DNA from: an uncultured Actinomycetes bacterium
Lineage (GTDB): Bacteria; Actinomycetota; UBA4738; HRBIN12
Direction of reading: 5' to 3'
NCBI GenBank assembly: GCA_963786805.1
Contig: CAWBAK010000004.1
Span: 242,043 to 306,042 of the forward strand
DNA length: 64,000 bases
Both the position numbers and the translations under genes were made by a program. Within the stretch, counting starts at the first letter, position 1. Each line of letters opens with the position of its first letter. Below, in pieces: positions 12,151-59,452 of the stretch. The notes under the pieces were generated by a model. That model ran no database searches and was not told the origin of the DNA. It saw only the letters and a list, made by a program, of their open reading frames with translations.

Positions 12151-12152
12151 CG

Positions 12153-13046: not shown

Positions 13047-13115
13047 CGGGCACCCCCTCGATGGACGAGGGCCCCGGGGACGCGTTCCCCGGGGCCCGTC
13101 GCTGCGTTCCGGCGC

Positions 13116-14354: not shown

Positions 14355-15472
14355 GCGTCCCCCTCCCCTGGGTCCTTCGACCCGTCCGTTGCATCGCCGG
14401 CCGCGTCCACGGGCCGGTTCAGTCGCCGATCCCACACGAGGCGCACGGAGTTGCCCCTCACCTGCAGCGCCTCCATCGACGACGTCGTCAGGTTCTGCTG
14501 CATCACCACCAGCTCACCGCCGACGTCCAGCTGCACGATGTACCGGGTGATCGCACCCAGGTATACGACGTCGCGCACGCGTCCGGTTGCCGTGCACCGG
14601 TCCGCGCTCACCGGCGCGTCGACCTCGACCATGGCGATCTTCTCGGGCCGGATCGTGAACGCATGGGGATCTCCGGTCACGGCACGGGCCGCGTCGCCGG
14701 CGAGCACGTTGGACGTCCCGACGAACCCCGCGACGAACCCGGTGGCCGGACGCTCGTAGACCTCGGCCGGCGTGCCGATCTGCTCGACCCGTCCGCGATT
14801 GAAGACGGCGAGACGGTCGCTCATCGTGAGCGCCTCATCCTGGTCGTGGGTCACGTAGATGAACGTGAGGCCCACCTGCTGCTGGATCTCCTTGAGCTCG
14901 ATCTGCATCGCCTGCCGGAGCTTGAGGTCGAGCGCGCCGAGCGGCTCGTCGAGCAGAAGCACCTTCGGCCGGTTCACGAGCGCTCTCGCAAGGGCGACGC
15001 GCTGGCGCTGGCCACCCGATAGCTGCGACGGCTTGCGGTCGCCGAACCCCGTGAGCTGCACCATCTCCAGTGCGCCGGCGACGCGGGTGCGGCGCTCATC
15101 CGCTGGGACCTTCTTGACCTTCAGGCCGTACTCGACGTTCTGCTCCACCGTCATGTGGGGGAACAACGCGTAGTCCTGGAAGACCGTGTTCACGTCGCGC
15201 TCGTAGGGCGCGAGGCGGGTGACGTCCTCCCCGCCGAGCTCGACCCGGCCCTCGGTCGGAGCCTCGAATCCGGCGATCATGCGGAGGCAGGTCGTCTTGC
15301 CCGAGCCCGACGGCCCGAGCATCGAGAAGAACTCGCCTTCACGCACCTCCAGATCGACGCCGTCGACCGCCACGACGTCGCCGAACCGCTTGCGAACCGA
15401 GTCGAGCCGGACCGCGACAGCGGCGTCCGCGAGGGTCCGGGCATGCTCGATCTGCACTTCGGGCTGCGCCAA
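14351..15472 (-). CDS. ABC transporter ATP-binding protein (PotA-like)
   Basis: It carries Walker [10 protein letters not shown], signature [15 protein letters not shown], Walker B LLLDEP, and a C-terminal TOBE/MOP-like domain. A TTG start is proposed at 15472 after GGAGG. The upstream part of the track ORF is Arg-rich. Confidence 0.85.
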
Positions 15473-15611
15473 TGTGCCTCCGTGGGGTGGGTGCGCTCGC
15501 GAACCGCGCAATCTTGAACGGGAAACAGTCGCCCGGCAACCCATCGGCCTGTCGATGCGACGCCGCGTTCGTTCGCCGCGGTGGCGCGTTCTCGGGCAAC
15601 GGTGGCAAGGA

Positions 15612-16619
15612 TCAGCGGGGCCGGGCCTCATCGAGCCGGCGGGCTCCCAGGGCGGCCGCGAGGCCCGACGTGAGCTCGCCCACGACGCCGGGGCCCCGGT
15701 AGATGAGGGCCGTGTACACCTGGACGGTGCTCGCGCCCGCATCCAGGCAGGCGAGCGCGTCCGCCGCGGAGGACACGCCCCCGCACGCGGCCACCGGCAC
15801 CGTTCGTCCGATCGCCGCGACGACCTCCGAGACGATCTCGGGCGTCCGATCGAACAGCGCCCGTCCCGAGAGTCCCCCCTGGCCGGTCGAGAGCCTCGGC
15901 TCGAGGACCGACCGGGTGTTCGAGCACGTCAGGCCGTCGGCGCCGCCTTCGACCGCGATCTGGGCGAGCGCGAGGACCACCGCTCGTTCGACGTCCGTTC
16001 GGAACGGCGGCAGCTTCACGAACAGCGGGGTGCTGCGTCGCGCCCCGAGCTCGCGGAGCAGCGCGGCGAGGTGCGACTCGTTGTCCCGGTCGCGTCCCCA
16101 CGAGACGTTGGGGCAGCTGGTGTTGAGCTCGACCCCGTCCACGTAAGGCTCGAGGAGGCCGTGGGTCTGGATCACCTCCTCGACGGCCTCGTCCGCGACG
16201 CTCGCCAGGCGCGGCGACGTCCGCGGGGTGGCCGCGAGATGCCGCGCTGCGGCTTCGGCGCCGGGGTTGGGAAGGCCCATCGCGTTCGTCATCGATGCGC
16301 GATCGCGGTAACGCACGATGCGCGGTCTGGCGTTCCCGTACCTCGGACGCCGAGTGAACGTTCCCCCGACGACGTACCCGAAGCCGAGCCTGCCGAGCGG
16401 ACCGAGGTGCCGGCCCGTCTTGTCGAATCCGGCCGCCAGGGCGATCGGGTTCGCGAGGTCCAGACCGGCGAGCGACGTCCGCAGCGCCGGATCGCGAGCG
16501 CAGCCCCCGAGTCGTTCCCACGGGAACGGAAGACCGAGAAGGCGTTGTGCGAGGACGTGGGCGGCCTCGGGCGGAAGCGCGAAGAAGGCCGGCTTCGCGA
16601 CCATCCGGTACCAGCCCAT
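15612..16619 (-). CDS. pyrD: Dihydroorotate dehydrogenase (quinone), class 2
   Basis: 335 aa: ...LPNPGAE...ELNTSCPN...TCSNT...[34 protein letters not shown], with an N-terminal membrane-associated helix. Confidence 0.9.
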
Positions 16620-16628
16620 CGGCGACCT

Positions 16629-17195
16629 ATGCTACGCGCGATGTCCGACACGGGGTCCGCGCGGTCTGGCGACGACGCGTCCGATCTGGGGGGCGAGGAG
16701 CTGGCGAACCGCCTGCTCGCCGCCTCGGAGCTGCACGGCGACTTCCTGCTCTCCTCGGGACGGAGATCCTCGGTCTACTTCGACAAGTTCCGGTTCCTCA
16801 CCGAGCCGGAGCTGCTGCGGGCGACCGCTCGCGCGGTGGCCGGCGCGGTGCCCAAGGGCGTCACCCACCTCGCCGCGCCCGAAGGAGCGGCCACCTTGCT
16901 CGTGGCGGCCGTCGCGCTCGAGACCGGACTTCCCCTCGCGGTGGTCCGCAAGGAGCCCAAGGCCTACGGGACGATGTCACGCGTGGAGGGACATGCGCCC
17001 GCCGGCGCCGAGGTCGCGTTGATCGAGGACGTCTCAACGACCGGACACCAGGTGCTGAAGGCCGCGAAGGCGCTCGAGGCCGAGGGCTGCCGGATCGGGA
17101 TCATCGTGCTGGCGATCGACCGCGGGGGCGCGGCGCACCTCCGGGAAGCGGGGTATCTGGTGCGGGCGGTCGTCGAGGTGCAGTCGGCGGACTGA
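16629..17195 (+). CDS. pyrE: Orotate phosphoribosyltransferase
   Basis: 188 aa with the PRPP-binding motif VALIEDVSTTGHQV. It is divergent from pyrD with only a ~10-bp spacer. Confidence 0.88.
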   Translation: MLRAMSDTGSARSGDDASDLGGEELANRLLAASELHGDFLLSSGRRSSVYFDKFRFLTEPELLRATARAVAGAVPKGVTHLAAPEGAATLLVAAVALETGLPLAVVRKEPKAYGTMSRVEGHAPAGAEVALIEDVSTTGHQVLKAAKALEAEGCRIGIIVLAIDRGGAAHLREAGYLVRAVVEVQSAD

Positions 17196-44599: not shown

Positions 44600-44617
44600 C
44601 CTAGCGACCGCCGTAGG

Positions 44618-45827
44618 ATGGGCGGCGTGAGCCAGACCCCCGAGGAGAACCCGTTCGGCGTCCCGATGGGCGACATCTGGAACGACGTGCCCCTGTTCCG
44701 CGAGATCCAGCGGGTCCTGCTCTCCTCGAGCGGTCCCGTGAACTGGGAGCTCGCGCGGCAGGTCGGGATCGCCGCGGCCTCGTGGGGTGCGGGCGACACG
44801 GCGCCGACCGCCGAGGACCAACGGATGTTCGACGAAGCCGTTCGCGTCGCGGAGCTGCAGGTCGGCGCGTTCACCGGCCTCGAACCCCCCGGCGATCTCC
44901 CGAAGGTCCAAGCCGTGCGCCGCGGGCAGTGGGTGCAACAGAACCTCGAGGGTCTCCGCGACGTCCTCGAGCCCGCCGCGGCGAAGATCGGCGAGGCCGT
45001 CGCGCGTGCGCAGCGCGAGGTGCCGCCCGACGCGCCGGATGCTGCGGCGCGCGATGCCCGGCATGACCCAGCTGCTCGGCCAGCTCTCGCCCCTGCTGCT
45101 CGGTGCCCAGGTCGGCAGCGTCCTCGGCGGGCTCGGTCAGCAGGTCCTCGGCCAATACGACATCGCCGTGCCGAGAGCCGAGGGCTCCGCCGCGCTCCTG
45201 TTCGTCGTGCCGAACATCGCGCAGTTCGAGAAGGATTGGAGCCTCGACGCCACCGAGTTCCGTACATGGATCGCGATCCACGAGGTCACCCACCGGTTCG
45301 AGTTCGCGCGCCCGTGGGCGCTCGCACGCTTCCGCGAGCTGCTGAACGACTACACCTCGACGTTGCAGCTGGACGTCGAGGGGTTGCAGCGACGGCTCGA
45401 GATGCTGGACCCGTCCAACCCGGAGGCGATGCAGGAGATGCTCGGATCCGGCGAAGGGCTGTTCGGCGCCGTGCTCGACGACGAGCAGCGCCTGAAGCTG
45501 AACCGGATCCAGGCCTTCATGAGCGCCGCCGAGGGCTACGGCGACCACGTGATGCACACGCTCGGCGCGCAGCTCCTCTCCTCGTACGCGCGGATCGAGG
45601 AAGCGATGCGCCGCTATCGCGAGACCGAGGAGACGGATCCGGTCCTCGAGCGGCTGCTCGGGATCGAGGTCAAGCGGGAGCAGTACCGGCTGGGCAAGGC
45701 GTTCTGCGACACCGTGGTCGAGCTCACGGACGAGGCCACCCTCACGCGGATGTGGGATTCGGCCGACGCCATGCCCTCGCTCCCCGAGATCGAGGAGCCG
45801 CGGCTCTGGCTCGCACGGAGCGCCTGA
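44618..45827 (+). pseudogene. Zinc-dependent metalloprotease (DUF2342/putative F420-associated hydrolase family, HExxH), frameshifted near 45038
   Basis: Frame A: MGGVSQTPEENPFGVPMGDIWNDVPLFREIQRVLLSSSGPVNWELARQVGIAAASWG...AKIGEAVARAQREVPPDAP. Frame B continues MLRRAMPGMTQLLGQLSPLLLGAQVGSVLGGLGQQVLGQYDIAVP...WIAIHEVTHRFEFARPW.... Removal of g in gcgccgGatgctg restores it. Confidence 0.7.
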
Positions 45828-45904
45828 CGCCCGTCGGCGCCTGACGGCGGGTCGCGCCCGGCGTATCGGCGTGACCCCGCGATCCTTCGCTATCCTTCGC
45901 CGCG

Positions 45905-46678
45905 ATGGCCGTCGGCGAGCTCGTCTTCGCGAACGTGGTGGACGACCGGGTGTGGGAGGCCGAGCGGGAGCGCGGCGCCCCGGGCATCTATCTCCTCGGG
46001 GCTCCCGGGCTGGCGCTCCCGTTCCGCGTCTACCGGGCCTGGAAGGTGCCGACGGGCCTGGTGACCGAGGAGGTCCAGTTCTACGGACCGTCGGGCCGCC
46101 TCGTGTATCGGTGGGGTCCCGAGGTCCGCCGGATGCTCGGAAGCATGGACCTCACGGTCGCGGTCGACCGCATCGAGGACGCCGTGTTCGACGACACCGG
46201 TCAGCACCTCGTGTCGTTCGTGATCGACGGCGAGAACGTCGGCGAGATCGAGGTGCCGGTCTACGTCCAGACCGCCCCGGCCAAGCTGCCGAAGGAGGTC
46301 GAGGAGGGCTTCCGCAAGTCCGACGTCGTCTGGGTCGGCGTCGAGGTGAACGGGGTCCGCAGGATGGTCCCCGCGTGGTTCGCCTACAGGAACGGGAAGG
46401 TCTACGTGCTTTCCAAGCGCGAGCCGGGCCCGGAGGAGCAGACGATCCCCGGCCTTCCGAACGCGCCCGACCTCATCATGGTCACTCGACGGAAGGGCCG
46501 CGAGACCGCCCTCGGCGAGTACCACGCCGCCGTGCGTTTGCTCGAAGGGGCGGAGTGGGAGGAGGCGGCGAAGGCGCTCGTCGACCGCCGTCGCAGCCGC
46601 CCAGGGCCGCCCGCCGACGCGTTGAGCCGTTGGCGCGGCACCTGCGACATCGCCGAGCTCACGCCCGTCGTCGGCTGA
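45905..46678 (+). CDS. Hypothetical protein
   Basis: 257-aa ORF with non-biased, protein-like composition. No family recognised. Confidence 0.5.
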   Translation: MAVGELVFANVVDDRVWEAERERGAPGIYLLGAPGLALPFRVYRAWKVPTGLVTEEVQFYGPSGRLVYRWGPEVRRMLGSMDLTVAVDRIEDAVFDDTGQHLVSFVIDGENVGEIEVPVYVQTAPAKLPKEVEEGFRKSDVVWVGVEVNGVRRMVPAWFAYRNGKVYVLSKREPGPEEQTIPGLPNAPDLIMVTRRKGRETALGEYHAAVRLLEGAEWEEAAKALVDRRRSRPGPPADALSRWRGTCDIAELTPVVG

Positions 46679-46741: not shown

Positions 46742-49700
46742 CTATGACGTCACCGTAGGACAGATGTTGGTACTCGCGGGATTGAGGATCTTGACGCATG
46801 TGATCCGACCCTGGACCGACGGTGAGATGGGCGTGTTGGTCTCGACGTAGTCGGCGAGGACCTCGTCCATCGTCTTGATCGAGGGCGTGTTCAGCACGCT
46901 GACCAGGTGCGGGTACCCGTCGCCGGCCATCGCCATGAAGTCGTTGATCGCGACCGTGTACGGACCACCGGCACTCGTGAGGTCGATCGGGGCCCCGGTA
47001 CAGGTGCCGTCCGGTGCCTGCCTCACCGCACCCGTCACCCGGCTGCCGACCGTTGCACTGATGTCGTACGTGAAGCAGAGGCCGGAGACCTGCGGGAAGC
47101 GGCCGTTCGCCGTCGGCATCGAGGAGACACCGTTCTCGAGCATCGTCTTCAACACCGCGCCGGAGACGGGAGCCGTCGCCACGACGTTCCCGAACGGCAA
47201 CACGGTCAGCACCTGGCCGAGCGTGATCGGGTAGGGCGGCGGCGTGAACGCCGGACAGAAGTCGCTCGCGTTGTCGGTCGTCGGACACGTGAGGTCCGCA
47301 CGCAAGCCCCCGGAGTTGGTGATCGCGAAGTCCACCGTGAACCCGGGGAACGCGGTCCGCATCGAATCGGTCACGACGTTGCCGAGCAGCGATTCGCACA
47401 GCCGGCTGTCGACGCGGCCGCACTTGTCCGAACGCGGGATCGCCACCGTGGAGGTGCCGATCACCGGGCTGAGGAGCGGTGCGAGCTCGGCGTTCAGCTC
47501 GTCGACCCGCGCCTGGATGGCCGGGTCGGGCGTCACCCCGATGGTCCACGGCTTGTGGAAGTCGGCCGTCTTGTAGACCACCGCCTTCGTGCTCGTGTCG
47601 ACCACGAGGCGAACGCGGGTGAACCGCACGCCCTTGCTCAGGTTCTCGGTGACGAGGATGCCGTTCGGCCGCGTCGAGACCACCTGGAAGTTCGTGTGAT
47701 CGCCGAGCACGGCGTCCACGCCGGTGAGGGCGTCGGCCAGATCGACGACCGGACCCGTCGGGCTCGTGAGCGTTCCGGCCGTCGCCCCGTCGTGGCCCAT
47801 GACGACGATCGTGTTCACGCCGTTGCTCCGCAGGCGGTTGACCTCCGCCTGAACGCGGGGCAGACGAGCCTCGACATGGAACGGGTCGAGCCCGCCCGGG
47901 AAGATGAGCGACACGAGGTCCTCGTTCGAGAACCCGACGAGGCCGAGCTTGACGCCCGCGAAGTTGAACACCGTGGACGGTGACCACTCGGGCGGCGTCT
48001 TGCCATTGGCATTCAGCAAGTTCGCCGAGACGATGGGGAAGTCCGCCAGCGGGATCAGCGTGTTCCTCAGGTACGCAGAACCCTTGTCGAAGTTGTGGTT
48101 GCCCAGCCCGTCGGCCGAGAAGCCCATCATGTTCATGAACTCCATCGTCGGGATGTCTCCGAAGAAGCTCGAGATCGGAGGCGTCGCTCCGACCGAGTCA
48201 CCCGCGGCGACCGTGATCGACCCGTCGGGCGCTTCGCTTCGGTACAGGTCGAACCACGGTTTCAGGAACGCCGAGCCGCCGATCGGGAAGACCGGGTTCG
48301 CCGAACCCCCTCCCGCGAGGGTATCGGCCGCTTCCGCGAGCGGCACCAGCTGGCCGTGGTAGTCGCTGATATCGAGGATCGTGATCGTCTTCCACCGGCC
48401 GGGCGTCGGGAAGAGCTCCGTCAGGATCCGGCCACGCGCGTTCTGCGGCCCCGGGATGTCCATCAGGAACGCGATCGTCGGCGCCACGTCGACGACACGG
48501 ATGCCCTCGACCGGGTCCTGCCTGCGGATCCCGGGTCCCGAGGCGACGAACGTCCCGTGCATGTTCACGTTGTGCTCGAGGTCGACCAGCTCGGGGAAGT
48601 AGCCGTGCTGCCCGAAGAACTGCGAGAAGGCGATCGTCTGTCCGCGTGTCGCCGCGTCGAACTGATACGGGGGCCGCAGGACGACCACGACGTCGCCGCT
48701 CCGGTTCGGATGCAGCGAGTCGCTGCCGTCGACGTCCCGGAGCTCTTCCTTCAAGAGCACGTCCTCGACGACCTGCGCCCCGGGATTCGCCGGGTCGGTC
48801 AGGCTCTCGAAGGCTGCGACGATCTGGCTCCGTACCAAGTCGTAGTCGGCAGCCGGAACCTGCGGGGTGTTCAGGACGTTGGTTGGGGGGCCGGTCTGAG
48901 CCGGGTCTCTGCCGGCGAGGTTCAGATAGATCTGCGCCGCCCCTCCGGCGTAACAGGCCTTCGCGAGCGTGGCACCGGAGGCAGCCTTCCGGCAGTTGCC
49001 CGTCTGCTCCGCCCCCTGGAGCCCCGCGTCCACCAGGACCTTGCTCGCGTTGACCGCGTACCACTGCGGCGCGAAGCCGTGATCGGAGCTGGCGAACACC
49101 GTCGCGTTCGTGCCCATCAGCTGCCGGGCGAGGCCGAGCGTTCCGTCGGCCTCGTGATACGCCGCCTCGATGTACCCCTCCCGCTCGTCGATCCGGCCAT
49201 CGGGGATGTCGTCGTTCGTGAGGTCGTCGAAGTACGGGTTCGGATCGCCATCCATGTCCGTCGGCGTGACGAGACCCATGAACTGGTGCGAGAACTCATC
49301 GGTGACCGGGCTGCCGGCCATCAGCAGGTCCGGTTGCACGCCGAGACCGGGGATCGTGCCGCCGCCGAACTTCGGAACCGGAGCGGTGCCGAGTATGTAC
49401 CTCAGGTAGGCCCAGTGCGCGTCGGCCCAGAACAGGCCCTGCTCGACATAGGTGTCCTCGTCGACGATGCCACCCTCGAGCGGGGCGAAGTCCGCCGCGG
49501 TCGAGGTGGGGAAGGTCGCGTTCAAGGTCTCCTCGAACGCCAGCGAACCCGCGGCCCCCAGGGCGTTGTACGAGGCGTTCGCGCGCGCGATCGAGGTGAA
49601 GTACACGCGGAACTTGGACAGGTCCGGTTCGATCTCGATCGCCTTGACGTAGAACCCGGCGGTCTTGCCCGTGAGGTCTCCGGTCAGCGTCACCTTGACG

Positions 49701-50635
49701 TCCGCCCACTCGTTCTCGGACAGGGTCGCGACGGCTGCCGTTCCGTTCTTGCCTGCCGTCGACGGAACGACCAACACGCTGTCGTAGTTCGTGGCGGAGT
49801 CGTCGGATGAGTCGAAGATGTAGAGGTCGAAGAAGCGATCGACGTTGTTCCCCCCGGGGAACGCCGTGTTCGCGAGCTTGAACTGCTCCTGCATCGCCGG
49901 GCTGAAGCTTGCCGGGACGTTCGTCCACCCCGCTGCCGGGTCGAGATCGACCCGCTGGTAGGCCGTCCCCCCGGTCGTGGTAGCACCGGGCGCCACGTCC
50001 GGGATGAACTGCCGGATGAGCGCCGGCTGACCCGGCAGGTCGTAGTTCAGCAGGACACCGCGGTTGGAGAAGAACGACCGGAAGTCGACGACCGGTCCCT
50101 GGATCGCGGGCACAAGCGCCCTCGACCCGACCCATTCGACCGAGACGACCTTCTTCCCCGCTCGCTCGGCCGCCTGAAGGATGTGGTCCGCCTGGAGGAT
50201 CCCGGTCCCCGCGAAGCTCGACGAGTTGTTGAAGTTCCCCTCGCCCGTTCGGTGGAAGGTGTTGTTCGTCGAACCGTGCTCGCCGGGATAGGCGCCGGTG
50301 GCGAGCGAGTGCCAACCGACGCCGGTGTTCGGCGGGAAGGCCTGGGTCAGCCCATTGTCACCGCGGACCCCGTTCGCCATCAGGTTCGCGTAGGTCGGCA
50401 TGAGCCCGTCCGCTGCATACGTCTCCATGAGGTCCGGACGCATGCCGTCGGACGCGAAGAAGATCACCTTGTCGGCCTTGGGGCGGCCTCCGCCGGATGG
50501 CTTCCCCTGCTTCAGGGCGCCGGCGGGCACGGCGACGACGAACGCCGCGATGACTGCGAGCGCGACCAGGATCGATCGGGTACGGGAACGGACGACCATC
50601 GCGAGCTCCTTCCGCGGGCCTGAGCCCTCCGACAA
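46742..50635 (-). CDS. Secreted bifunctional nucleotide pyrophosphatase/phosphodiesterase (alkaline-phosphatase-like core) fused to UshA-type 5'-nucleotidase/2',3'-cyclic-nucleotide phosphodiesterase
   Basis: 1297 aa, single intact ORF, with signal peptide [28 protein letters not shown]. The N-terminal half has the NPP/AlkP-core motifs ([13 protein letters not shown]...; ...FASSDHGF...). The C-terminal half has the calcineurin-like metallophosphatase motifs ([26 protein letters not shown]) and a 5'-nucleotidase C-terminal substrate-binding domain. Confidence 0.85.
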
Positions 50636-50727
50636 CGGATGCCGACCCAGACCGCGTTGCGAGGTCGTACGGGGGGTCGACCGACGCGGGCGAAGCCTAG
50701 AACACGCGTTCGTCCGGGTCGAATCGC

Positions 50728-51753
50728 CTAGTCGGAGCGGTTCATCACGCGACCCAGCGCCTTCGCGAGCAGCTCGAGCTCGCGGCCGAGATCGAGCATC
50801 TCATCGGGCGTCAGGGCCTGCGGGCCGTCGCAGAGCGCGCTCTCCGGATCGGGGTGCACGTCGATCATGACCGCGTCGGCGCCGGCGGCGATCGCCGCGC
50901 GCGCCATCGGCGCCACGAGTGACTTCTTCCCCACCGCGTGCGAGGGGTCAACGATCACCGGAAGGTGGGATTCGGCCTGGGCGACGGCCATCCCTGCGAG
51001 GTCGAGCGTGTTGCGCGTCGAAGGCTCGAACGTGCGGATCCCGCGCTCGCACAGGATGATCTCGGAGTTCCCGCGCTGGGCGACGTACTCGGCCGCCTGG
51101 AGCCACTCGTCGATCGTCATCGCGAGGCCGCGCTTCAGCATCACCGGCTTGCGGGCGAGCCCGACCTCCTTGAGGAGCTCGAAGTTCTGCGCGTTCCGCG
51201 TGCCGACGCGGATGCAGTCGGCGACCTCCGCGACGAGCTCGACCTGTGAGACGTCGACGACCTCGACGACGATCGGCAGTCCCGTCTGTCTCCGGCACTC
51301 CTGGAGGATGTCCAGTCCGCGTTCGCCCATCCCCTGGAACGAGTAGGGCGAGGTCCGAGGCTTGTAGACGTCGCCTCGCAGGATCGTCGCGCCGGCGGCC
51401 TTCGCGGCCTTCGTCGAGATCAGCGCCTGCTCGTCGCTCTCGACGGCGCACGGCCCGGCGATGATCGTGAAGCTTCCTCGGCCGACCGGCGTCGCCCCGA
51501 CGTTCACGGTCGTGGGCACCGGATGCAGGTCCGCGGCGACCATCTTGTAGGGCTTGCCGATCTGGATGACGTGGTCGACGCCGGGCATCTGCTTCCAGTC
51601 GAAGGCCTGGAACCGCTCCGTGTCGCCGACGAGGCCGATGATGGTGTGGACGGTCCCGTGCGAGACGAAGGCCTCGCCTCCGGCGGCGCGGACGCGCTCG
51701 GCGACGGCCTCGATGTCGGCCGGTGTCGCCTCCCGTCTCATCACCACGACCAT
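50728..51753 (-). CDS. aroG: 3-deoxy-7-phosphoheptulonate (DAHP) synthase, type I-beta with N-terminal ferredoxin/ACT-like regulatory domain
   Basis: 341 aa. The N-terminal roughly 70-aa regulatory domain is followed by the KDSA/DAHPS TIM barrel (...[10 protein letters not shown]...[13 protein letters not shown]...[11 protein letters not shown]...). A strong SD AAGGAGCGGAGG precedes the ATG. Confidence 0.9.
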
Positions 51754-51780
51754 CGGTCTGCCTCCGCTCCTTGGGACCGC

Positions 51781-51816
51781 CCGAGAGACGAAGAACCCCG
51801 GGCTCCGGGCCCGGGG
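51781..51816 (-). terminator. Intrinsic terminator / attenuator in the aroG leader (GC hairpin CCCCGGGC-uccgg-GCCCGGGG followed by a U-rich tract)
   Basis: On the minus strand the hairpin at 51816..51796 is followed by UUCUUCGUCUCUCGG (51795..51781). It is located between the leader-peptide stop (51843) and the aroG SD. See finding. Confidence 0.55.
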
Positions 51817-51842
51817 TCGTCTTCTGCCTTGCGGCTCAGGCG

Positions 51843-51896
51843 ACTACGCCGGGCCCGGCCCGCCGTAGAACCACCCGAAACCGAAGGATGCCTGCA
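51843..51896 (-). CDS. Putative aromatic-amino-acid leader peptide (17 aa: MQASFGFGWFYGGPGPA)
   Basis: ATG at 51896, stop TAG at 51845..51843. The peptide has Phe-Gly-Phe-Gly-Trp-Phe-Tyr in 7 consecutive codons. It is immediately followed by a terminator hairpin and then the DAHP synthase gene. The 3' codons (GGCGGGCCGGGCCCGGCG) can pair alternatively with the 5' arm of the terminator. Confidence 0.5.
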
Positions 51897-51999
51897 TCGG
51901 ACCGCCATGGTGCCAGCGAACGACGGGCCTGGCAACCACCCCGAGGCGGCTCGGCACGCTCGATCGCGCGCGGGCAGGCGCCGACCCGCGAGGGTTACG

Positions 52000-52626
52000 A
52001 TGCGCGGCGTGTCCGTCACGATCGTCGATCACCCACTCGCCGGGCACCTGCTGACGCAGCTGCGGGACCAGGACACGGCGCCGCCGGTGTTCCGAACGCT
52101 GGCCAAACGCCTCGCGCTGGCGCTCGCGCTCGAGGCGATCCGCGATCTGCCCACGACCGAAGTCGAGGTGCAGGGCCCGCTGGAGCGTGCGAAGGGGCGG
52201 ATCCTGGGCGACCTCGTCGCGGTCCCGATCCTTCGTGCCGGCCTCGGGATGCTCGAGGCGGTCACCGAACTGTTCCCCGAGGTGGCCGTCGGCTACATCG
52301 GGCTCGAGCGCGACGAGGCGTCCCTGCAACCGCAGTCGTACTACCGGAAGCTCCCCCAGGTCGCCGGACGGCACGTCCTCGTCCTGGACCCGATGCTCGC
52401 GACGGGCGGATCGGGTTCGGCGGCGACCGCCGCCGTCCGCGAGGGCGACCCGGCCTCGATCCGGTTCGTCTGCGTCGTCTCGGCGCCCGAGGGCATCGCG
52501 AGGATGGAGGCCGACCACCCGGACGTGCCGATCTTCACCGCCGCCGTCGACCGGCAGCTGAACGAGCACGGCTACATCCTGCCCGGGCTGGGCGACTTCG
52601 GCGATCGGCTGTTCGGGACCGAGTAG
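52000..52626 (+). CDS. upp: Uracil phosphoribosyltransferase
   Basis: 208 aa with the PRPP-binding motif ...VLVLDPMLATGGS.... The start is at ATG 52000. The upstream part of the track ORF is junk. Confidence 0.9.
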   Translation: MRGVSVTIVDHPLAGHLLTQLRDQDTAPPVFRTLAKRLALALALEAIRDLPTTEVEVQGPLERAKGRILGDLVAVPILRAGLGMLEAVTELFPEVAVGYIGLERDEASLQPQSYYRKLPQVAGRHVLVLDPMLATGGSGSAATAAVREGDPASIRFVCVVSAPEGIARMEADHPDVPIFTAAVDRQLNEHGYILPGLGDFGDRLFGTE

Positions 52627-52656
52627 AGGCGGAACCGCGCGGACCGGACAGCGACG

Positions 52657-53632
52657 TCAGGAGCCGCCCGCGCCCTCGTAGGCCCGTCCAGCCGCTTCCG
52701 GCGGGCGCACCCGCCCGACGAATCCGGCGATCGCCACGATCGTGACGACGTACGGGATCATCCGGATGAACTGGGGTGGCAACGCGGAGATCACCGGCGC
52801 GTTGTTCAGGCGCAAAGGGATCGCAAACGTGAAGCCGAAGAGCCACGCGAAGAACATCAGGCGGACCGGATTCCAGTTCGACAGGATCAGCGCGGCGAGG
52901 GCGATGAAGCCGAGAAAGAGCGTCTGGCCCTCCCGCCAGTTGCCGATCACCTCCGACGCGAGGAAGGCACCGGACATCCCGGCGAACGCCCCGGACAGCA
53001 TGACTCCCTGATACCGGTAGACGGAAACGCTCACGCCGAGCGAACGCGTCGCCTCGGGGTTCTCGCCGCACGACCGGAGACGAAGACCCCAGCGCAGCCT
53101 GTTCAGCGCGAACCACACGGGGACCACCATCAACGCCGCGATGAGCACCACGGGGGATAACCCTTGGAACGCCCGCCCGAGCCCGCTCGGCAGCGACGAC
53201 AGCCCGGGGATGTCCAGGCGGTCCAGGTGCGGTCCGCCGGGGTCGGACTGCGTCGACTGGCCGTCGAAGAACGCGGACGAAAGGAACCGCGCCAAGCCCA
53301 CAGCCACCAGGTTGATCACCACGCCCGACACGATGTGGTCGACCCGGAACGAGATCGTCGCCAGCGCGTGAACGCCCGCGAACAGGGCACCGCAGAACGC
53401 GCCGAACAGCAAGCCGAGCGAGTGGTCCCCAAGGCAGGCCGAGCTCCAACGAGTCGGTGAAGAACCGCGCCCCGAACGCCCCGGTGACCGTTCCGATGAT
53501 CATCAGGCCTTCGAGGCCGATGTTGACGATGCCCGAGCGTTCGCTGAACAGACCGCCGAGGCCGGTCAGATAGAGGATGGTGAAGTAGGTGAACGAGATC
53601 TGGACGGCCACGGCGATGTCGGTGAAGGGCAT
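52657..53632 (-). pseudogene. Nucleoside ABC transporter permease (BMP-system YufQ/NupC-like), frameshifted near 53422
   Basis: N-terminal frame: MPFTDIAVAVQISFTYFTILYLTGLGGLFSERSGIVNIGLEGLMIIGTVTGAFGARFFTDSLELGLPWGP. Downstream frame: SLGLLFGAFCGALFAGVHALATISFRVDHIVSGVVINLVAVG.... Removal of a c (ccaCtcg) rejoins them. Confidence 0.75.
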
Positions 53633-54879
53633 CAGCCTTCCCTCTCGTCTGCCGGCTGGAACGCCTCGGAACCCGACGGCTCGGGTTCCGTACCCGGCGG
53701 CGTTCCTGCGTCACCCGGACCCGACGAGTCCTCGAGCGCGCCCGCCTCTCCGGCCCGCTGCAACTGCCTGGCCGCCAGCCGGCGCTTCGCGATCTGGTAC
53801 GTGATGACCACCGAGAGGATCAGGATCCCCTGCAGGATGATGATGAACTCGCGCGGCACCTCGCTTTGGATCTGCAGCGCCACCTCGCCTCGCGAGAGGA
53901 TCCCCCACAGGATGGCCGCGAACACGATCCCGATCGGGTTGTTCTGACCGAGGAACGCGACGGCGATCCCCGTGAAGCCCAGCGCGGTGATGTAGTTCTG
54001 CGGCAAGTGCCCCTTGTCCGCGAGGATCTGCTGCATCCCCACCAGACCGGCAAGCGCGCCCGAGATCAGGAACAGCTTGAGCTGGGTTGCGCCGATCGAG
54101 ATCCCTCCGGCTCGCGCGGATCCCGGTGAGGATCCCACGGCGCGCGCCTCGTACCCGAGACGCATCCTCCTGATGAGGAACCACACCAGCACGGCGGCGG
54201 CGATCGCCAGGAAGAGCAGCCACGACAGATGGGCGCCGGGGGTGACGCCGAAGAACTCGCCGATGTCGCCGATCAACGCACCGTCGGGGAACTGATCCGT
54301 CCGCAGGTCGACGTTCTGACCTCCGGGCCGTTCGCTGACCCTCAGCGGGAAGTTGATCGCCCAGGCCAGGAGGCTCACCGCGATCCCGTTGAGCATGATC
54401 GTCGTCACGACTTCGTGAGCGCCGGTCTTGACCTTCAAGATGGCCGGGATCGCGGCCCACACCATCCCTCCCAGCATCGCGGCGGCCAGCACCGCCGTCA
54501 CGAGGAGAGGTCCGGGGAGGAATCCCAGCTCGAGCGCGGCCCAAGCCGCGGTCACCATGGCGACCAGGTACTGGCCTTCGATGCCGATGTTGAACATGCC
54601 GCCCTTGAAGCAGACGGCCACCGCCAGCGCCGAGAAGATCAACGGGGTGGCGATCGCCAGGACGTATCCGATCCCGTCGACCGTTCCGAGCGACGCCTCC
54701 AGGATCGACGAGTAGACCCCGATCGGAGTCTCCCCGTACGCGACGATCAGGACCGATCCGATGAGGACGGCGATCCCGAGCGACGTGAGGAGTGCCAGGA
54801 TCTGGCCGACGAGGCCCTCGAGCCACGGCGGGCGCGCACGCGAAAGCGAAGCCGGGACCGCCCCCGCCTCACTTGGCAC
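53632..54879 (-). CDS. Nucleoside ABC transporter permease (BMP-system YufP/NupB-like)
   Basis: 415 aa, about 10 TM, branched-chain amino acid/sugar permease (BPD-2) fold. Confidence 0.85.
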   Translation of the reverse strand: MPSEAGAVPASLSRARPPWLEGLVGQILALLTSLGIAVLIGSVLIVAYGETPIGVYSSILEASLGTVDGIGYVLAIATPLIFSALAVAVCFKGGMFNIGIEGQYLVAMVTAAWAALELGFLPGPLLVTAVLAAAMLGGMVWAAIPAILKVKTGAHEVVTTIMLNGIAVSLLAWAINFPLRVSERPGGQNVDLRTDQFPDGALIGDIGEFFGVTPGAHLSWLLFLAIAAAVLVWFLIRRMRLGYEARAVGSSPGSARAGGISIGATQLKLFLISGALAGLVGMQQILADKGHLPQNYITALGFTGIAVAFLGQNNPIGIVFAAILWGILSRGEVALQIQSEVPREFIIILQGILILSVVITYQIAKRRLAARQLQRAGEAGALEDSSGPGDAGTPPGTEPEPSGSEAFQPADEREG

Positions 54880-56412
54880 TTAGGCGACCTCCTCCCTCGC
54901 TCCGCCGAGCATCCCGAGCCCGATCTGTTCCGGCGCCGCATCGGGTGAGAACTCGCCCGTGATCCTGCCCTCGTACAGGGTCACGATCCGATCCGACAGC
55001 GCGTAGATCTCGTCGAGCTCGGCCGAGATCAGCAGGATGCCGCGCCCCGCAGCCTTCTGCTCCAAGATCTGCGTCCAGACGAACTCGATCGCGCCGACGT
55101 CGAGGCCGCGCGTCGGTTGTGCGGCGATCAACAGCTTGGGATCGGTCTCGAGCTCCCGCGCGAGGATGAGTTTCTGCTGGTTCCCGCCCGACAACGTCGA
55201 AGCGTTCACGTCGATGCTCCGGGTCCGAACGTCGAACAACGTCACCAGCCGGCCTGCGAGCTCCTTGATCTTGCGGATCAGGAGAACGCCCAGCCGCGTG
55301 GAGAACTCCGCGTCGTCCTGGCGCCCGAGGACGGCGTTCTCCCACAACGTCATGTCGAGAACCAGTCCCTGGCCGTGGCGATCCTCGGGGATGTAGCCGA
55401 CACCGATGTTCCGGATCTCGCCGACGGATCGCCCGGCGATGTCCTTGCCTTCGAGCTGGATCGTGCCGGCCTCGGGTTTGCGAAGTCCGAACAGCGCCTC
55501 CGCCAGCTCACGCTGGCCGTTGCCCTCGACGCCCGCCACCCCAAGGATCTCTCCGGCTCGGACCTCCAGGGTGATCCCGTTCAGCTTCCCCTCACCGGCG
55601 AGATCCTCGACCCGGAGCACGGGCTCACCGACCTCCACCTGCGGCTTCTCCAATCGGAACAGGACCGGTCGGCCCACCATCATCTCGGCGAGCTTGGCCT
55701 TGGATGTCTCGGCCGGGGTCGTCTCGCCGACCACCCGTCCCCGTCGCAGCACCGTGATCCGATCCGCGATCTCGAGCACCTCGTCCAGCTTGTGGCTGAT
55801 GAACACGATCGTCCTGCCCGCCTCTCGGAGCTTGCGAAGGTTCCCGAAGAGATCCTTGGATTCCGCCGGCGTGAGGACCGCCGTCGGCTCATCCAGGATC
55901 AGGATCTCGACGCCGCGGTACAGCGCCTTCAGGATCTCGACGCGCTGCTCCTCACCGACGGACAGGTCCTCGACCAACGCGGTCGGCTTGACGCGGAACC
56001 CGTACTGATCGGCGAGCTGCGCGACCTTCTTGCCGGCCTCGTCGATGTCGAGGAGGGGACCTCCTTCCTCGCCCAGGATGATGTTCTCCGTGACGGTGAA
56101 GCGGTCAACCAGCACGAAGTGCTGGTGGACCATGCCGATCCCGAGCGCGATCGCGTCACGCGGCGACCCGATCCGCGCTTCTTTCCCTCGAACGCGGATC
56201 GTCCCTCCGTCGGTCGGGTAGATGCCGTACAGGACGCGCATCAGCGTGGACTTCCCGGCCCCGTTCTCCCCGATGAGCGCGTGGACCTCGCCGGGTCGCA
56301 GCTCGAGGCTCACCTCGTCGTTGGCGAGGACGCCCGGGAACCGCTTCGTGATCTTCTCGAGCTCGACGAGGGGCGGGGAGCCCTTGCCCCCCGCCCCATC
56401 GCCCTCGCTCAT
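54880..56412 (-). CDS. Nucleoside/sugar ABC transporter ATP-binding protein with duplicated NBDs
   Basis: 510 aa with two nucleotide-binding domains (Walker A GENGAGKST and GVEGNGQRELAE..., signature LSVGEEQRVEILKAL / LSGGNQQKLILAREL). Confidence 0.9.
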   Translation of the reverse strand: MSEGDGAGGKGSPPLVELEKITKRFPGVLANDEVSLELRPGEVHALIGENGAGKSTLMRVLYGIYPTDGGTIRVRGKEARIGSPRDAIALGIGMVHQHFVLVDRFTVTENIILGEEGGPLLDIDEAGKKVAQLADQYGFRVKPTALVEDLSVGEEQRVEILKALYRGVEILILDEPTAVLTPAESKDLFGNLRKLREAGRTIVFISHKLDEVLEIADRITVLRRGRVVGETTPAETSKAKLAEMMVGRPVLFRLEKPQVEVGEPVLRVEDLAGEGKLNGITLEVRAGEILGVAGVEGNGQRELAEALFGLRKPEAGTIQLEGKDIAGRSVGEIRNIGVGYIPEDRHGQGLVLDMTLWENAVLGRQDDAEFSTRLGVLLIRKIKELAGRLVTLFDVRTRSIDVNASTLSGGNQQKLILARELETDPKLLIAAQPTRGLDVGAIEFVWTQILEQKAAGRGILLISAELDEIYALSDRIVTLYEGRITGEFSPDAAPEQIGLGMLGGAREEVA

Positions 56413-56429
56413 GGTTCCGCCGCTCCGGC

Positions 56430-57551
56430 TCAGGCCGGCACGTCCGGGACGACGATGGTCCCGTCGATGATCTGCGCCTTGAAGTCATCGAGCTGCGTGA
56501 CGATGTCATCGGTCAGCTGCTCGGGGTTCGACGTCGCGAAGTCGAGACCCTCCTCGGCCATGCCGAAGACCAGGCTCCCTCCGAACGACCCGTCGCCGAC
56601 ACCCGCGATCGCGGTGTACACGGCCGTGTCGACCCGCTTCAGCATCGAGGTCAGGATCAGCGGCTGCTGCTCCGGGCTCGCCGTCAGGTACTGGTCCGAG
56701 TCGACGCCGATCGCGAGCTTGTCGGCCGCGACCGCGGCGTTGAACAGACCGGCGCCCGATGCCCCGGCGGCGTGGTAGATGATCTCGGCGCCGTCGTCGT
56801 ACATGGCGGTGGAGAGGGCTTCTCCGCGCACCGGGTCGTTGAATGCGGTCGTGTCGTCGCCGATGTACTCGACGAGCACCTCGATGTTCGGGTTGATCTC
56901 CGCCGCACCGGCCTCGTACCCGGCCTGGAACTTCTCGATCAGCGTGCCGGTCTGGCCGCCGAGGAAGCCGATGGTGTCGCAGCCGCACTTCAGTGCCGCG
57001 GCCGCCCCGACCAGGAAGGAGCCCTCGTGCTCCTTGAAGGTGTAGTCGGCCACGTTCGGGAGATCGGCCACGTCGTTCGTGAGGAACGAGCAGAACTCCA
57101 GCGGGCAGGTCGCGAATCCGTCCACGATCATGAAGCTCGTGTCCGGGTAGTCCACGCCGATCGCGTTGATCCCCTCCGAGAACGCGAACCCGACCCCGAT
57201 GACCAGGTCGAAGCCGGCATCGGCGAGCGCCTGCGCGTTCTGGTCGCGATCGGATCCCGTCGAGTTCGCCTCGTTCGTGACGACGTTCTCCTCGCACACC
57301 AAGCCGTCGGCGACCGCCTGGTCGAGCCCGGCCTTGGCGGCGTCGTTGAACGACTTGTCACCGAGGCCACCGATGTCGAACGCCATCCCTACTTGGATGT
57401 CGGCATTGCACTCCACTCCGGTTTCGCCGGTCGGCCCGGTGGTGTCGGTGGTCCCGGTAGCTCCGGTACCCCCACCGTCATCTCCACACGCCGCCGCGAC
57501 GACCCCGAGCACGGCAACGAGGATCAGGAGCCTCGTTCGCAATGAACCCAT
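56430..57551 (-). CDS. BMP family (PnrA/Med-like) nucleoside-binding ABC substrate-binding lipoprotein
   Basis: 373 aa with a signal peptide plus lipobox (LGVVAAAC) and a basic-membrane-protein fold (...GMAFDIGGLGDKSFND...GVGFAF...). Confidence 0.85.
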   Translation of the reverse strand: MGSLRTRLLILVAVLGVVAAACGDDGGGTGATGTTDTTGPTGETGVECNADIQVGMAFDIGGLGDKSFNDAAKAGLDQAVADGLVCEENVVTNEANSTGSDRDQNAQALADAGFDLVIGVGFAFSEGINAIGVDYPDTSFMIVDGFATCPLEFCSFLTNDVADLPNVADYTFKEHEGSFLVGAAAALKCGCDTIGFLGGQTGTLIEKFQAGYEAGAAEINPNIEVLVEYIGDDTTAFNDPVRGEALSTAMYDDGAEIIYHAAGASGAGLFNAAVAADKLAIGVDSDQYLTASPEQQPLILTSMLKRVDTAVYTAIAGVGDGSFGGSLVFGMAEEGLDFATSNPEQLTDDIVTQLDDFKAQIIDGTIVVPDVPA

Positions 57552-58534: not shown

Positions 58535-59183
58535 TCAAGCGTCCTCGAACAGTTGCGGCTCGGTGAGATGGCGGACGTCGTTCAGGAACCGGACCTCGCG
58601 CCGGTCGCCGTCGACCCCGATCACGCTGATCGACGTGTTCTCCGGAAGGAAGAACATCTCCTGCTCGAGTCGGAGCAGTGGCGCCACGTAGGCGTTCACG
58701 ACCCCGCCGTGACAGAACACGTACACGTTTCCCCGCGGATGCTCGGAGAGGGCGCGCTCCACACCGGCCAAGACGCGCGCCCGGAAGGCCTCCAGGTCCT
58801 CGGATCCCAGGAGCGTGCCGCCAGAAGGCTTCGTGATTGCGGAAGCTGTGGAGCAAGGCCTCATCGCCCCCGAGGATCTCTTCGAAGGTCCGGTTCTCCC
58901 AGTCGCCGATGAACGCCTCGGTCAGGTCCATGTCGTATCCGACACCGATGCCCGCCTTGTCCGCGTACGCGAGGGCGGTCTCGCGGGCGCGTCGAAGCGG
59001 CGAGCTCACGATCGCGGCCGGCGGGTCCATCTGGAGCAGCCGCCGCGCGAGGCGTTCGGCCTGGTCCCGTCCCTCCGCCGCGAGCGGCGGATCGTACTGA
59101 TCGCCGCGCGGCGTCGAGGCGAAATCGTCGTTGTCCAGGTCCGAGCGTCCGTGCCGGATCAGGTACAGGACCCGAGCCGTCAT
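58535..59183 (-). pseudogene. Histidine phosphatase family protein (phosphoglycerate-mutase-like), frameshifted near 58807
   Basis: N-terminal frame: MTARVLYLIRHGRSD...PPLAAEGRDQAERLARRL...SSPLRRARETA... (the RHG catalytic motif). Downstream frame: (G)SEDLEAFRARVLAGVERAL...VYVFCHGGVVNAYVA.... Removal of one g from ctggGatcc joins them. Confidence 0.7.
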
Positions 59184-59452
59184 CGCCGGCGGCCCCGCGT
59201 GCGGTTGAGCTCGACGCGCCAGCACCCCTCGTGCCAGTGGCGTCGCTCGTCGGGTGCGTCCTGCGGCACGACGACGAGGTGCCAGGTGCCCGGCCGGATC
59301 TCCAGGTCGCATCCGGGGCACCGGTACGGTTTGTCGCCGGTGAGCCGCCGCACGTCGAACCCCGGCGCGAGCGCCCACGTCGGCGCCGCCGACTGCGGCA
59401 TCCCCGACTGCGGGGGCGGGTCCTCGGGCGCTCGCCGGTTCTTCCTCGGCAT
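59180..59452 (-). CDS. Small hypothetical zinc-ribbon-like protein (90 aa)
   Basis: MPRKNRRAPEDPPPQSGMPQSAAPTWALAPGFDVRRLTGDKPYRCPGCDLEIRPGTWHLVVVPQDAPDERRHWHEGCWRVELNRTRGRRR carries a CPGC...HWHEGC motif. The ATG overlaps the stop of the upstream hydrolase (TGATG) and its own stop overlaps the phosphatase ATG (ATGA), suggesting translational coupling. Confidence 0.45.
   Translation of the reverse strand: MPRKNRRAPEDPPPQSGMPQSAAPTWALAPGFDVRRLTGDKPYRCPGCDLEIRPGTWHLVVVPQDAPDERRHWHEGCWRVELNRTRGRRR

Follow-up and report, generated by a model that had tools for sequence, protein, structure and literature searches.

A predicted secreted fusion of an NPP-like alkaline phosphatase superfamily module with a 5'-nucleotidase, common in soil Actinomycetota and Chloroflexota

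We have analysed a 64,000-nucleotide stretch of DNA from an uncultured Actinomycetes bacterium (GenBank assembly GCA_963786805.1, contig CAWBAK010000004.1, positions 242,043 to 306,042 of the forward strand), which we call the window, and we are concerned here with a single gene within it, one that encodes a large, predicted secreted protein. Our conclusion is that this protein is a true fusion of a distinct subfamily of the nucleotide pyrophosphatases/phosphodiesterases (NPPs), a branch of the alkaline phosphatase (AlkP) superfamily, with a 5'-nucleotidase, and that the fused state of this subfamily dominates. It represents a variant architecture, so far uncharacterised, of enzyme families that are known, and its N-terminal module (N-module) contains an inserted domain that belongs to no recognised family. 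It is this insertion that is new here, along with the finding that the N-module occurs alone but mostly in fused form. An initial annotation, made from the letters of the window, had proposed a secreted NPP-type module joined to a complete 5'-nucleotidase, and in this it was right: both families are found by Pfam matches and by alignments, and the predicted active-site residues are intact.

Results

The fusion is genuine and widespread

A search of 5.8 billion proteins returned more than 120 metagenomic clusters at 66–77% identity, ∼1190–1376 amino acids (aa) in length, all of which have both Pfam domains of the window protein. In a scan of genomes, with one genome taken per species, at least 154 genomes encode a relative, and the best 80 of these 154 loci were used for taxonomy and for the analysis of gene neighbourhoods described below. 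By record title, ∼51 of the 80 belong to Actinomycetota and 26 to Chloroflexota, while three are of odd or unclear assignment. The Actinomycetota carriers are found in Gaiellaceae, Kribbella, Jiangella, Intrasporangium, Terrabacter, Micromonosporaceae, Ilumatobacteraceae, Nocardioidaceae and Mycobacteriales, and the Chloroflexota carriers in Anaerolineales, Limnocylindria, Caldilineaceae, Thermomicrobiales and Chloroflexia. The initial annotation had called the fusion architecture uncommon, which these counts contradict; it is common in soil members of both phyla.

The NPP module, which runs to residue 735, is joined directly to the 5'-nucleotidase, which begins at residue 736. Given that at least three frame disruptions lie nearby in the same assembly, one might suspect that two adjacent genes have been joined here by an assembly or sequencing indel. 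We regard the chance of such an artefact as negligible, as the same continuous architecture is present in more than 100 independent assemblies, including those of cultured Kribbella, Jiangella, Intrasporangium and Terrabacter, and the sequence is conserved through the junction. Nor are the two halves separate genes in all relatives, an outcome that the initial annotation had named as damaging to its own proposal: the same one-chain architecture is found throughout the more than 120 clusters. On the strength of these clusters, the 154 genomes and the conserved junction, we reject a mis-joined open reading frame (ORF).

Among 1.84 billion representatives clustered at 50% identity, 388 match the N-terminal half at E ≤ 1e-30. 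Some 25 of these representatives cover the whole N-module; ∼15 are fused (1170–1401 aa, one of them with a PKD linker between the modules), ∼8 are stand-alone (630–715 aa) and 2 are intermediate. In the two loci of stand-alone N-modules that we examined, no 5'-nucleotidase gene lies next to the N-module gene. That the fused state dominates is the best available argument that both activities share one substrate stream. Databases name the relatives variously as 'alkaline phosphatase family protein', as '5'-nucleotidase C-terminal domain-containing protein' or as a combination of two COGs.

One of the stand-alone forms is found at locus L081 (positions 361–2487), where a 708-aa N-module, 55% identical and with the insertion kept, adjoins a type II secretion operon encoding a secretin and the T2SS C, M and K components. 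The host of this locus is presumably Gram-negative.

Phylogeny and copy number

In an unbootstrapped neighbour-joining tree, the window protein groups with those of loci L001 and L037, as synteny predicts. The same tree places the L013 and L077 proteins in a distant clade, though these loci are equally syntenic, with the order 3-deoxy-D-arabino-heptulosonate 7-phosphate (DAHP) synthase gene–fusion gene; their placement may reflect replacement by a paralogue or transfer across phyla. Chloroflexota copies are ∼70% identical to the window protein, as against 66–72% for its nearest syntenic relatives, while the housekeeping neighbours of those same relatives are 87–90% identical to those of the window. 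Such a pattern of similarity suggests fast evolution, paralogy or transfer between phyla. A genome can carry more than one member of the family: L011 and L043 are two copies of the fusion gene in one Anaerolineales metagenome-assembled genome (SMAG_U7981, DATDRQ01).

The gene and its product

The fusion gene lies within an ORF at 46742..50635 on the minus strand, from which the initial annotation had derived a product of 1297 aa. The ORF stands, but probably not the length: the ATG at 50599, with GGAAGGAG before it, is the likely start of the gene, and from there the product would be 1285 aa. In close relatives the ribosome-binding site is kept as GGAAGGAG or GGGAAGGAG, and the 1285-aa sequence from this ATG is identical to the NCBI/ENA protein P0001. 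Because the G+C content of the window is ∼70%, long spurious ORFs are common in it, and we therefore judged reading frames by their G+C content at third codon positions (GC3). The GC3 of the fusion ORF is 0.89, the level of other real genes of the window.

The N-terminus has the parts expected of a signal peptide, namely a basic n-region, a hydrophobic core and AGA at the predicted cleavage site, and an equivalent of residues 1–28 is present in every relative examined. Inspection of the sequence of the fusion protein found no C-terminal sortase/sorting motif, nor any other anchor motif. The ten cysteines form five closely spaced pairs, conserved in the family, and so fit an extracellular enzyme. 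The mature protein would have a mass of ∼133 kDa and a calculated pI of 4.7. We thus describe the product as a putatively Sec-secreted, disulfide-stabilised protein, with two separate hydrolytic active sites predicted on one chain.

The N-module belongs to the NPP branch

The N-module matches PF01663 (Phosphodiest) in two stretches, at 109.3 bits against a cut-off of 23, and stand-alone and fused relatives match likewise. Its catalytic set (D51, the nucleophile T92, N113, D434, H438, D506, H507 and H665) is invariant in 32 homologues, so that the two-metal ligands, the Thr nucleophile and the phosphoryl-binding Asn of the NPP family are all present. Using a profile of the N-module, built to include stand-alone relatives, for comparison with known structures, T92 aligns with T90 of the Xanthomonas NPP, SDHGF with SDHGM (D257/H258) and GQHGY with GSHGY (H363). 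In sequence, the N-module is most like the nucleotide-acting NPP1, NPP3 and Xanthomonas axonopodis NPP (Xac NPP); by profile E-value the NPPs come first (4e-16), followed by PafA (5tj3; 5e-12) and then the phosphonoacetate hydrolase PhnA (1e-8). ENPP6 and ENPP7 are also among the matches.

An AlphaFold (AF2) model of the N-terminal half has a predicted TM-score (pTM) of 0.77, and the top Foldseek matches of this model are ENPP1/3, Xac NPP, snake-venom phosphodiesterase (PDE), PafA and the alkaline phosphatase SPAP. To NPPs of 380 aa, the modelled fold is matched with a probability of 1.0 and a target-normalised TM-score of 0.62–0.66. On this evidence from sequence and modelling, we assign the N-module as a divergent member of the NPP (type I phosphodiesterase/nucleotide pyrophosphatase) branch of the AlkP superfamily. 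The initial annotation would have been overturned had the N-terminal half proved not to be a phosphodiesterase/AlkP-core domain; the Pfam score, the catalytic residues and the fold all say that it is one.

What the initial annotation did miss in this half is an insertion of ∼260 aa. It stands between the WPG and DxxxH blocks, in place of a segment of ∼45 residues in canonical NPPs which we take to line their nucleotide pocket. The insertion models confidently as a beta-sandwich with a helical bundle, but no Pfam family matches it and no solved structural relative was found. Our reading of these data is that the substrate pocket of the N-module has been rebuilt by an inserted domain whose fold has no known relative.

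The C-terminal module is a complete 5'-nucleotidase

PF02872 (5_nucleotid_C) matches the C-terminal module (C-module) at 101 bits against a cut-off of 23.6. Against PDB and NCBIfam, residues 739–1268 align end to end with whole 5'-nucleotidases, the best being that of Thermus thermophilus (2z1a; E = 7e-31), followed by CD73, NadN and UshA. The metallophosphoesterase motifs D746xH748, G799-D800, GNHNFD (833–838), GH (935–936) and DH (967–968) are all at least 90% conserved. The nucleotide-binding C-domain, aligned to 2z1a and CD73, has R1066, GGLR (1097–1100), F1136, F1221 and a GDG motif, and we take R1066, R1100, F1136 and F1221 to be the nucleotide-binding Arg residues and the Phe clamp. The C-module is, as far as alignment can tell, a complete 5'-nucleotidase of the CD73/UshA family, with the His-Asp dyad, all metal ligands and the Arg/Phe clamp.

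The initial annotation had gone further and named this half UshA. That identity does not survive: the protein is a member of the 5'-nucleotidase family, and scores 103 bits on the UshA equivalog model (NF007109), where the cut-off is 600. Membership of the YfkN-type tandem metallophosphoesterase/5'-nucleotidase group was considered and rejected, as the best score on the YfkN models (NCBIfam PRK09419) is 138 bits, far below the cut-off of 1646, with only the C-terminal half matching, and the N-terminal half comes from another superfamily.

The proposed route and its alternatives

We propose that the N-module, outside the cell, would cut phosphodiester or pyrophosphate bonds in nucleotide-containing compounds to give 5'-nucleoside monophosphates (5'-NMPs). 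Likely substrates would be the 3' ends of oligonucleotides, nucleoside tri- and diphosphates (NTP/NDP), NAD, NDP-sugars, and cyclic or linear dinucleotides. The C-module would then remove the phosphate from the 5'-NMP, releasing nucleoside and inorganic phosphate (Pi), with the inserted domain shaping or capping the substrate site of the first step, and through the fusion the two activities would be held on one exoenzyme that diffuses freely. The initial annotation had arrived at a similar two-step route from nucleotide diesters and pyrophosphates to nucleosides, and it remains the most economical reading of the two intact predicted sites. We judge this sequential route on one secreted chain to be probable, if well short of certain. 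Least certain is what the N-module acts on: diester or monoester, nucleotide or other head group.

Several observations weigh against the proposed route. After the nucleophile, the canonical T-F-P-N-H is replaced by an invariant T-G-V-G-W, and Gly93 of the fusion protein takes the place of the base-stacking F91 of Xac NPP. The canonical NPP nucleotide pocket is not present, its segment between the WPG and DxxxH blocks having been replaced by the insertion, and the substrate of the N-module may therefore be something other than a nucleotide. In Foldseek the NPP-like monoesterases PafA and SPAP fit the fold about as well as NPPs do, and the AF2 model of the N-terminal half has a low per-residue confidence (pLDDT) exactly around the nucleophile (residues 85–135). 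The initial annotation had expected PF00149 (Metallophos) and PF02872 in the C-module, and PF01663 or PF00245 in the N-module; PF01663 and PF02872 are there, but PF00149 has no match in the fusion protein even at E ≤ 10, its motifs being present nonetheless. PF00149 does match the relative P0132. Consensus scanning and upstream alignments, which did not include a dedicated search for PhoP sites, identified no promoter or PHO-type motif, and no description of the fusion architecture or of any member was found in the searchable literature.

Two other enzymatic readings have to be considered. In one, the N-module cleaves phosphomonoesters in the manner of PafA/PhoK(SPAP) and is no diesterase, making the protein a broad-range double phosphatase for phosphate acquisition without any sequential pathway. 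The similar TM-scores of PafA, SPAP and the NPPs, the weak matches of PafA models (NF042991, 1e-6; 5tj3 as above), the loss of the canonical nucleotide pocket and the name 'alkaline phosphatase family protein' that NCBI gives to relatives all point this way. However, sequence profiles place the NPP diesterases ahead of PafA, and K162 and R164 of PafA lie in the segment matching that before the insertion, where no Lys/Arg pair conserved across the wider family is visible. Moreover, a second monoesterase would add little to a 5'-nucleotidase, and yet this module is mostly found fused to one. We therefore consider a double phosphatase unlikely. The other reading has the N-module cleave phosphodiesters that are not nucleotides (phospholipid head groups, glycerophosphodiesters or teichoic-acid-like polymers), as NPP2, NPP6 and NPP7 do, with the two halves as independent phosphate-releasing activities that share a secreted carrier. 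PF01663 does include lipid and choline phosphodiesterases, ENPP6 and ENPP7 are among the matches, the novel insertion replaces the nucleotide pocket, and in two loci stand-alone N-modules have no nucleotidase nearby. Against this, the preference of the N-module for a fusion partner specific to nucleotides favours one substrate stream common to both halves, and it is nucleotide-acting NPPs that match the sequence best, so that we find independent action of this kind improbable.

Returning to the sequential nucleotide route, we can extend it only tentatively. The window protein may be the type example of a widespread class of soil exoenzyme, in which an NPP-like diesterase with a pocket formed by a domain of new fold is hard-wired to a 5'-nucleotidase, and which converts nucleic-acid-derived or dinucleotide substrates to nucleoside and phosphate. 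The insertion might in that case be a polymer- or substrate-binding cap, possibly with a part in hand-over between the two sites.

Neighbouring genes do not form a dedicated locus

The features of the fusion gene and its neighbours are collected in Table 1.

Table 1. Coordinates of the fusion gene, its parts and its neighbours in the window. Domain assignments are predictions.
Feature	Positions	Strand	Basis
Fusion coding sequence, predicted secreted NPP-like/5'-nucleotidase protein, 1285 aa	46742..50599 (stop codon included)	-	ORF, ATG, public identity, GC3
Putative ribosome-binding site GGAAGGAG, 5 nt 5' of the fusion-gene ATG	50605..50612	-	Read from sequence
Predicted signal peptide, residues 1–28	50516..50599	-	Read from sequence; Sec-type, without lipobox
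NPP-type AlkP-superfamily module, residues 29–735	48395..50515	-	PF01663, catalytic residues, Foldseek
Insertion inside NPP module, residues 165–425, ∼260 aa	49325..50107	-	Beta-sandwich and helical bundle (model)
5'-nucleotidase module, residues 736–1285	46745..48394	-	2z1a/CD73 alignment, PF02872, motifs
DAHP synthase, type I-beta with ferredoxin-like domain	50728-51753	-	PF00793, PF18152; NF006421 453 bits, above cut-off
upp, uracil phosphoribosyltransferase	52000..52626	+	PF14681; TIGR01091 above cut-off
BMP-system permease 2, split in two frames	52657..53632	-	Frame comparison with L013, L037, L077
BMP-system permease 1	53632..54879	-	PF02653 146 bits
BMP-system tandem ABC ATPase	54880..56412	-	PF00005, two stretches
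BMP/PnrA-family substrate-binding lipoprotein, lipobox AAAC	56430..57551	-	PF02608 192 bits

The initial annotation had gathered the fusion gene, upp and a four-gene BMP-type ATP-binding cassette (ABC) importer into one locus. Its inventory is correct as to upp and the BMP lipoprotein, ATPase and two permeases, but upp begins at 52000, permease 2 is split, and a DAHP synthase gene had been overlooked. This gene, which belongs to aromatic amino acid biosynthesis and is no part of nucleotide scavenging, lies directly upstream of the fusion gene on the same strand, and sits between it and upp. Upp itself is divergent from the DAHP synthase gene and convergent with the ABC operon. With regard to the importer, the closest solved relatives of the lipoprotein are PnrA/TmpC (E = 8e-38), BmpA and BmpD, while on this system the NCBIfam 'B6 transporter' models stay well under the cut-offs set for them; by sequence, the binding protein appears clearly to be of the nucleoside-receptor type. 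A complete set of binding protein, ATPase and two intact permeases is not present here, permease 2 being split.

On the other side of the fusion gene, and convergent with it, lies a 267-codon ORF (45875-46678, plus strand) with a GC3 of 0.93 and a strong coding signal, for which there is no Pfam match at E ≤ 0.001.

We searched the 80 related loci with the neighbour proteins of the window. Upp is near the fusion gene in 8 of the 51 loci that have at least 3 kb upstream, the BMP binding protein in 5 of the 35 that have at least 7 kb upstream (and in L077, with 6.5 kb), and DAHP synthase in 13 loci. The loci with the same gene set beside the fusion gene are L013, L034, L035, L037, L039, L066, L073 and L077. 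All loci in which upp, BMP or DAHP synthase is linked come from one group of uncultured Actinomycetota, and beyond the other end of the fusion gene the members of this group have MreB, Zincin_2 and a Lon/PDZ protease in common as well. A whole stretch of housekeeping genes is thus syntenic, and the linkage of upp and BMP is block synteny. In an unsupervised clustering of the flanking ORFs of the 80 loci, the top neighbour cluster, DAHP synthase, is present in 12 of 80, no neighbour is conserved across the family above that level, and no pst/pho or other phosphate-related genes were found in the clusters inspected, namely the 14 most frequent.

Could the fusion gene, upp and the importer nonetheless be a dedicated module for extracellular nucleotide scavenging, with degradation outside the cell followed by nucleoside import and uracil salvage? 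A span of 11 kb takes in all of the components, the lipoprotein most resembles the nucleoside receptors PnrA, BmpA and BmpD, eight related loci have the same set beside the fusion gene, a sibling clade has upp and the BMP operon running in one direction, and the products of the enzyme would be substrates of the importer. We nevertheless think such a module unlikely. The genes of the window run in three transcription directions, with DAHP synthase interposed between the fusion gene and upp, and upp on the opposite strand to the fusion gene. The ABC operon, convergent with upp here, is inverted relative to the fusion gene in the sibling sub-clade, and there is therefore no operon constraint. The linkage is limited to the clade sharing the MreB, Zincin_2 and Lon/PDZ block, a 10-kb range around the fusion gene showed neither upp nor BMP in loci from Kribbella, Jiangella, Intrasporangium, Terrabacter, Gaiellaceae or Chloroflexota, and permease 2 is frameshifted in this assembly. 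The dedicated module of the initial annotation is thus not borne out. The fusion gene is a self-contained unit, and its nearness to upp and BMP is a gene order inherited in one clade; hand-off of its products to the BMP importer is plausible all the same. Gene proximity in a single window had overstated a 'locus', and comparative synteny took away most of that signal.

In the sibling-clade loci L035, L039, L066 and L073, upp lies directly upstream of the BMP binding-protein gene, co-directional with the ABC operon. Upp and BMP may form a salvage unit of their own, in which the fusion gene has no part.

Frame disruptions in the assembly

Comparison with intact orthologues in related loci verified three frame disruptions in ∼22 kb, or ∼1 per 7 kb. 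In permease 2, which is a single intact frame in L013, L037 and L077, there is a 1-bp insertion near 53419 (53410-53425; ctcGctcgg, as against atc-ctcgg in those three loci), outside any homopolymer; it could be an assembly error or mark a recent pseudogene. The Zincin_2 metallopeptidase gene (∼44600-45827, plus strand), whose orthologues of ∼400 aa are intact in eight related loci, passes from frame +2 to frame +3 at ∼45020-45105, with ∼24 residues unaligned at the break. The His_Phos_1 gene (∼58547-59190, minus strand) is broken at ∼58807, so that Pfam covers profile positions 1–109 of 194, and the L066 orthologue is matched further on in a different frame of the window. Each of the broken genes has one break, on either side of which identity is high and codon bias normal, and by these signs the breaks look more like assembly error than old pseudogenes.

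At this density of breaks, an intact ORF of 3.9 kb such as that of the fusion gene is not remarkable. The initial annotation had described the window as riddled with frameshifts. Three disruptions in ∼22 kb give this some substance, but we reject as frameshifts the same-strand ORF overlaps at 8–17 kb, which are separate intact genes. In this part of the window a sugar-type ABC system (11329-15928 and 15615-16631, minus strand), with two BPD_transp_1 permeases, SBP_bac_8 and an ATPase with TOBE, adjoins a dihydroorotate dehydrogenase gene. Its ORFs overlap in stop-to-stop terms only, and the genes are intact.

The region upstream of the fusion gene

Consensus scanning found no terminator between the DAHP synthase gene and the fusion gene, and read-through from the former into the latter is therefore possible. 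Alignments of the region upstream of the fusion gene show a -10-like TAGGCT/TACGCT and the ribosome-binding site, and nothing else. Apart from tRNAs, no Rfam families were found in the window or the sibling loci.

In the sibling clade (L023, L034, L035, L039 and L073), a strongly conserved leader of ∼180 nt lies 5' of the fusion-gene ATG, with the pattern GCATTTGACT...ATCG..TGCGGTAG followed by G/C-rich blocks. It has no Rfam match, RNAalifold gives it an unfavourable covariation term, and the window lacks it upstream of the fusion gene. Having neither an Rfam family nor covariation support, the leader was rejected as a candidate regulatory RNA, and it may be a promoter or operator.

Discussion

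The relevance of the fusion is mainly to soil organic-phosphorus cycling and to the enzymology of the AlkP superfamily. Surveys of phosphorus cycling in soil count genes of the phoA/phoD/phoX/pafA type, and under present annotation the fusion enzyme would be missed or mis-binned. If the tentative extension of the proposed route is true, the fusion class could be a significant, uncounted contributor to the mineralisation of organic phosphorus by soil Actinomycetota and Chloroflexota. The fusion also yields a clear, testable proposal as to which substrate stream this NPP subfamily, otherwise opaque, might serve.

With bacterial and vertebrate NPPs (Xanthomonas axonopodis NPP, ENPP1/ENPP3 and snake-venom PDE), the N-module shares the superfamily fold, PF01663, the metal ligands, the Thr and the Asn, and these enzymes too are extracellular. 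Over a structural alignment of the modelled N-module, however, identity to them is only ∼12%, the base-stacking Phe is Gly in the fusion protein, and the ∼260-aa insertion stands for their ∼45-residue pocket segment. The fusion protein is also without SMB or nuclease-like accessory domains, and is fused to a 5'-nucleotidase. The 5'-nucleotidases E. coli UshA, 2z1a, human CD73 and H. influenzae NadN, for their part, have the same two-domain layout, metal ligands, dyad and clamp as the C-terminal half, which differs from them in having GNHNFD for GNHEFD and extra conserved disulfide pairs, and in being divergent enough to escape PF00149. It is moreover the C-terminal part of a larger protein, and no UshA orthologue. 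PafA and PhoK (SPAP), which are widespread environmental phosphate scavengers, belong to the same fold branch, have a Thr nucleophile and are secreted, but these are stand-alone monoesterases of ∼520–560 aa, without the insertion or a nucleotidase fusion, and the PafA equivalog model gives the fusion protein 27.5 bits against a cut-off of 650.

In design, the fusion protein resembles YfkN and YhcR of Bacillus subtilis, large extracellular enzymes of several domains, which have been tied to phosphate limitation and to the recovery of phosphate from extracellular DNA (PMC11458576). They follow the same principle as the fusion protein, namely a secreted diesterase activity upstream combined with a module of the 5'-nucleotidase family. 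The partner module of YfkN is a metallophosphoesterase of the CpdB type, and that of YhcR an OB fold with a staphylococcal-type nuclease. The partner module of our protein, in contrast, comes from another superfamily, and no anchor was seen in the fusion protein, whereas YfkN and YhcR are sortase-anchored.

In mammals, ENPP1 and CD73 form a pathway from ATP, cGAMP or NAD to AMP and thence to adenosine, carried out by two separate membrane-associated proteins with a role in signalling. By analogy, the fusion protein would employ the same two families, in the same proposed order, outside the cell. It would do so, however, as one secreted polypeptide in soil bacteria, in a role that we presume to be nutritional.

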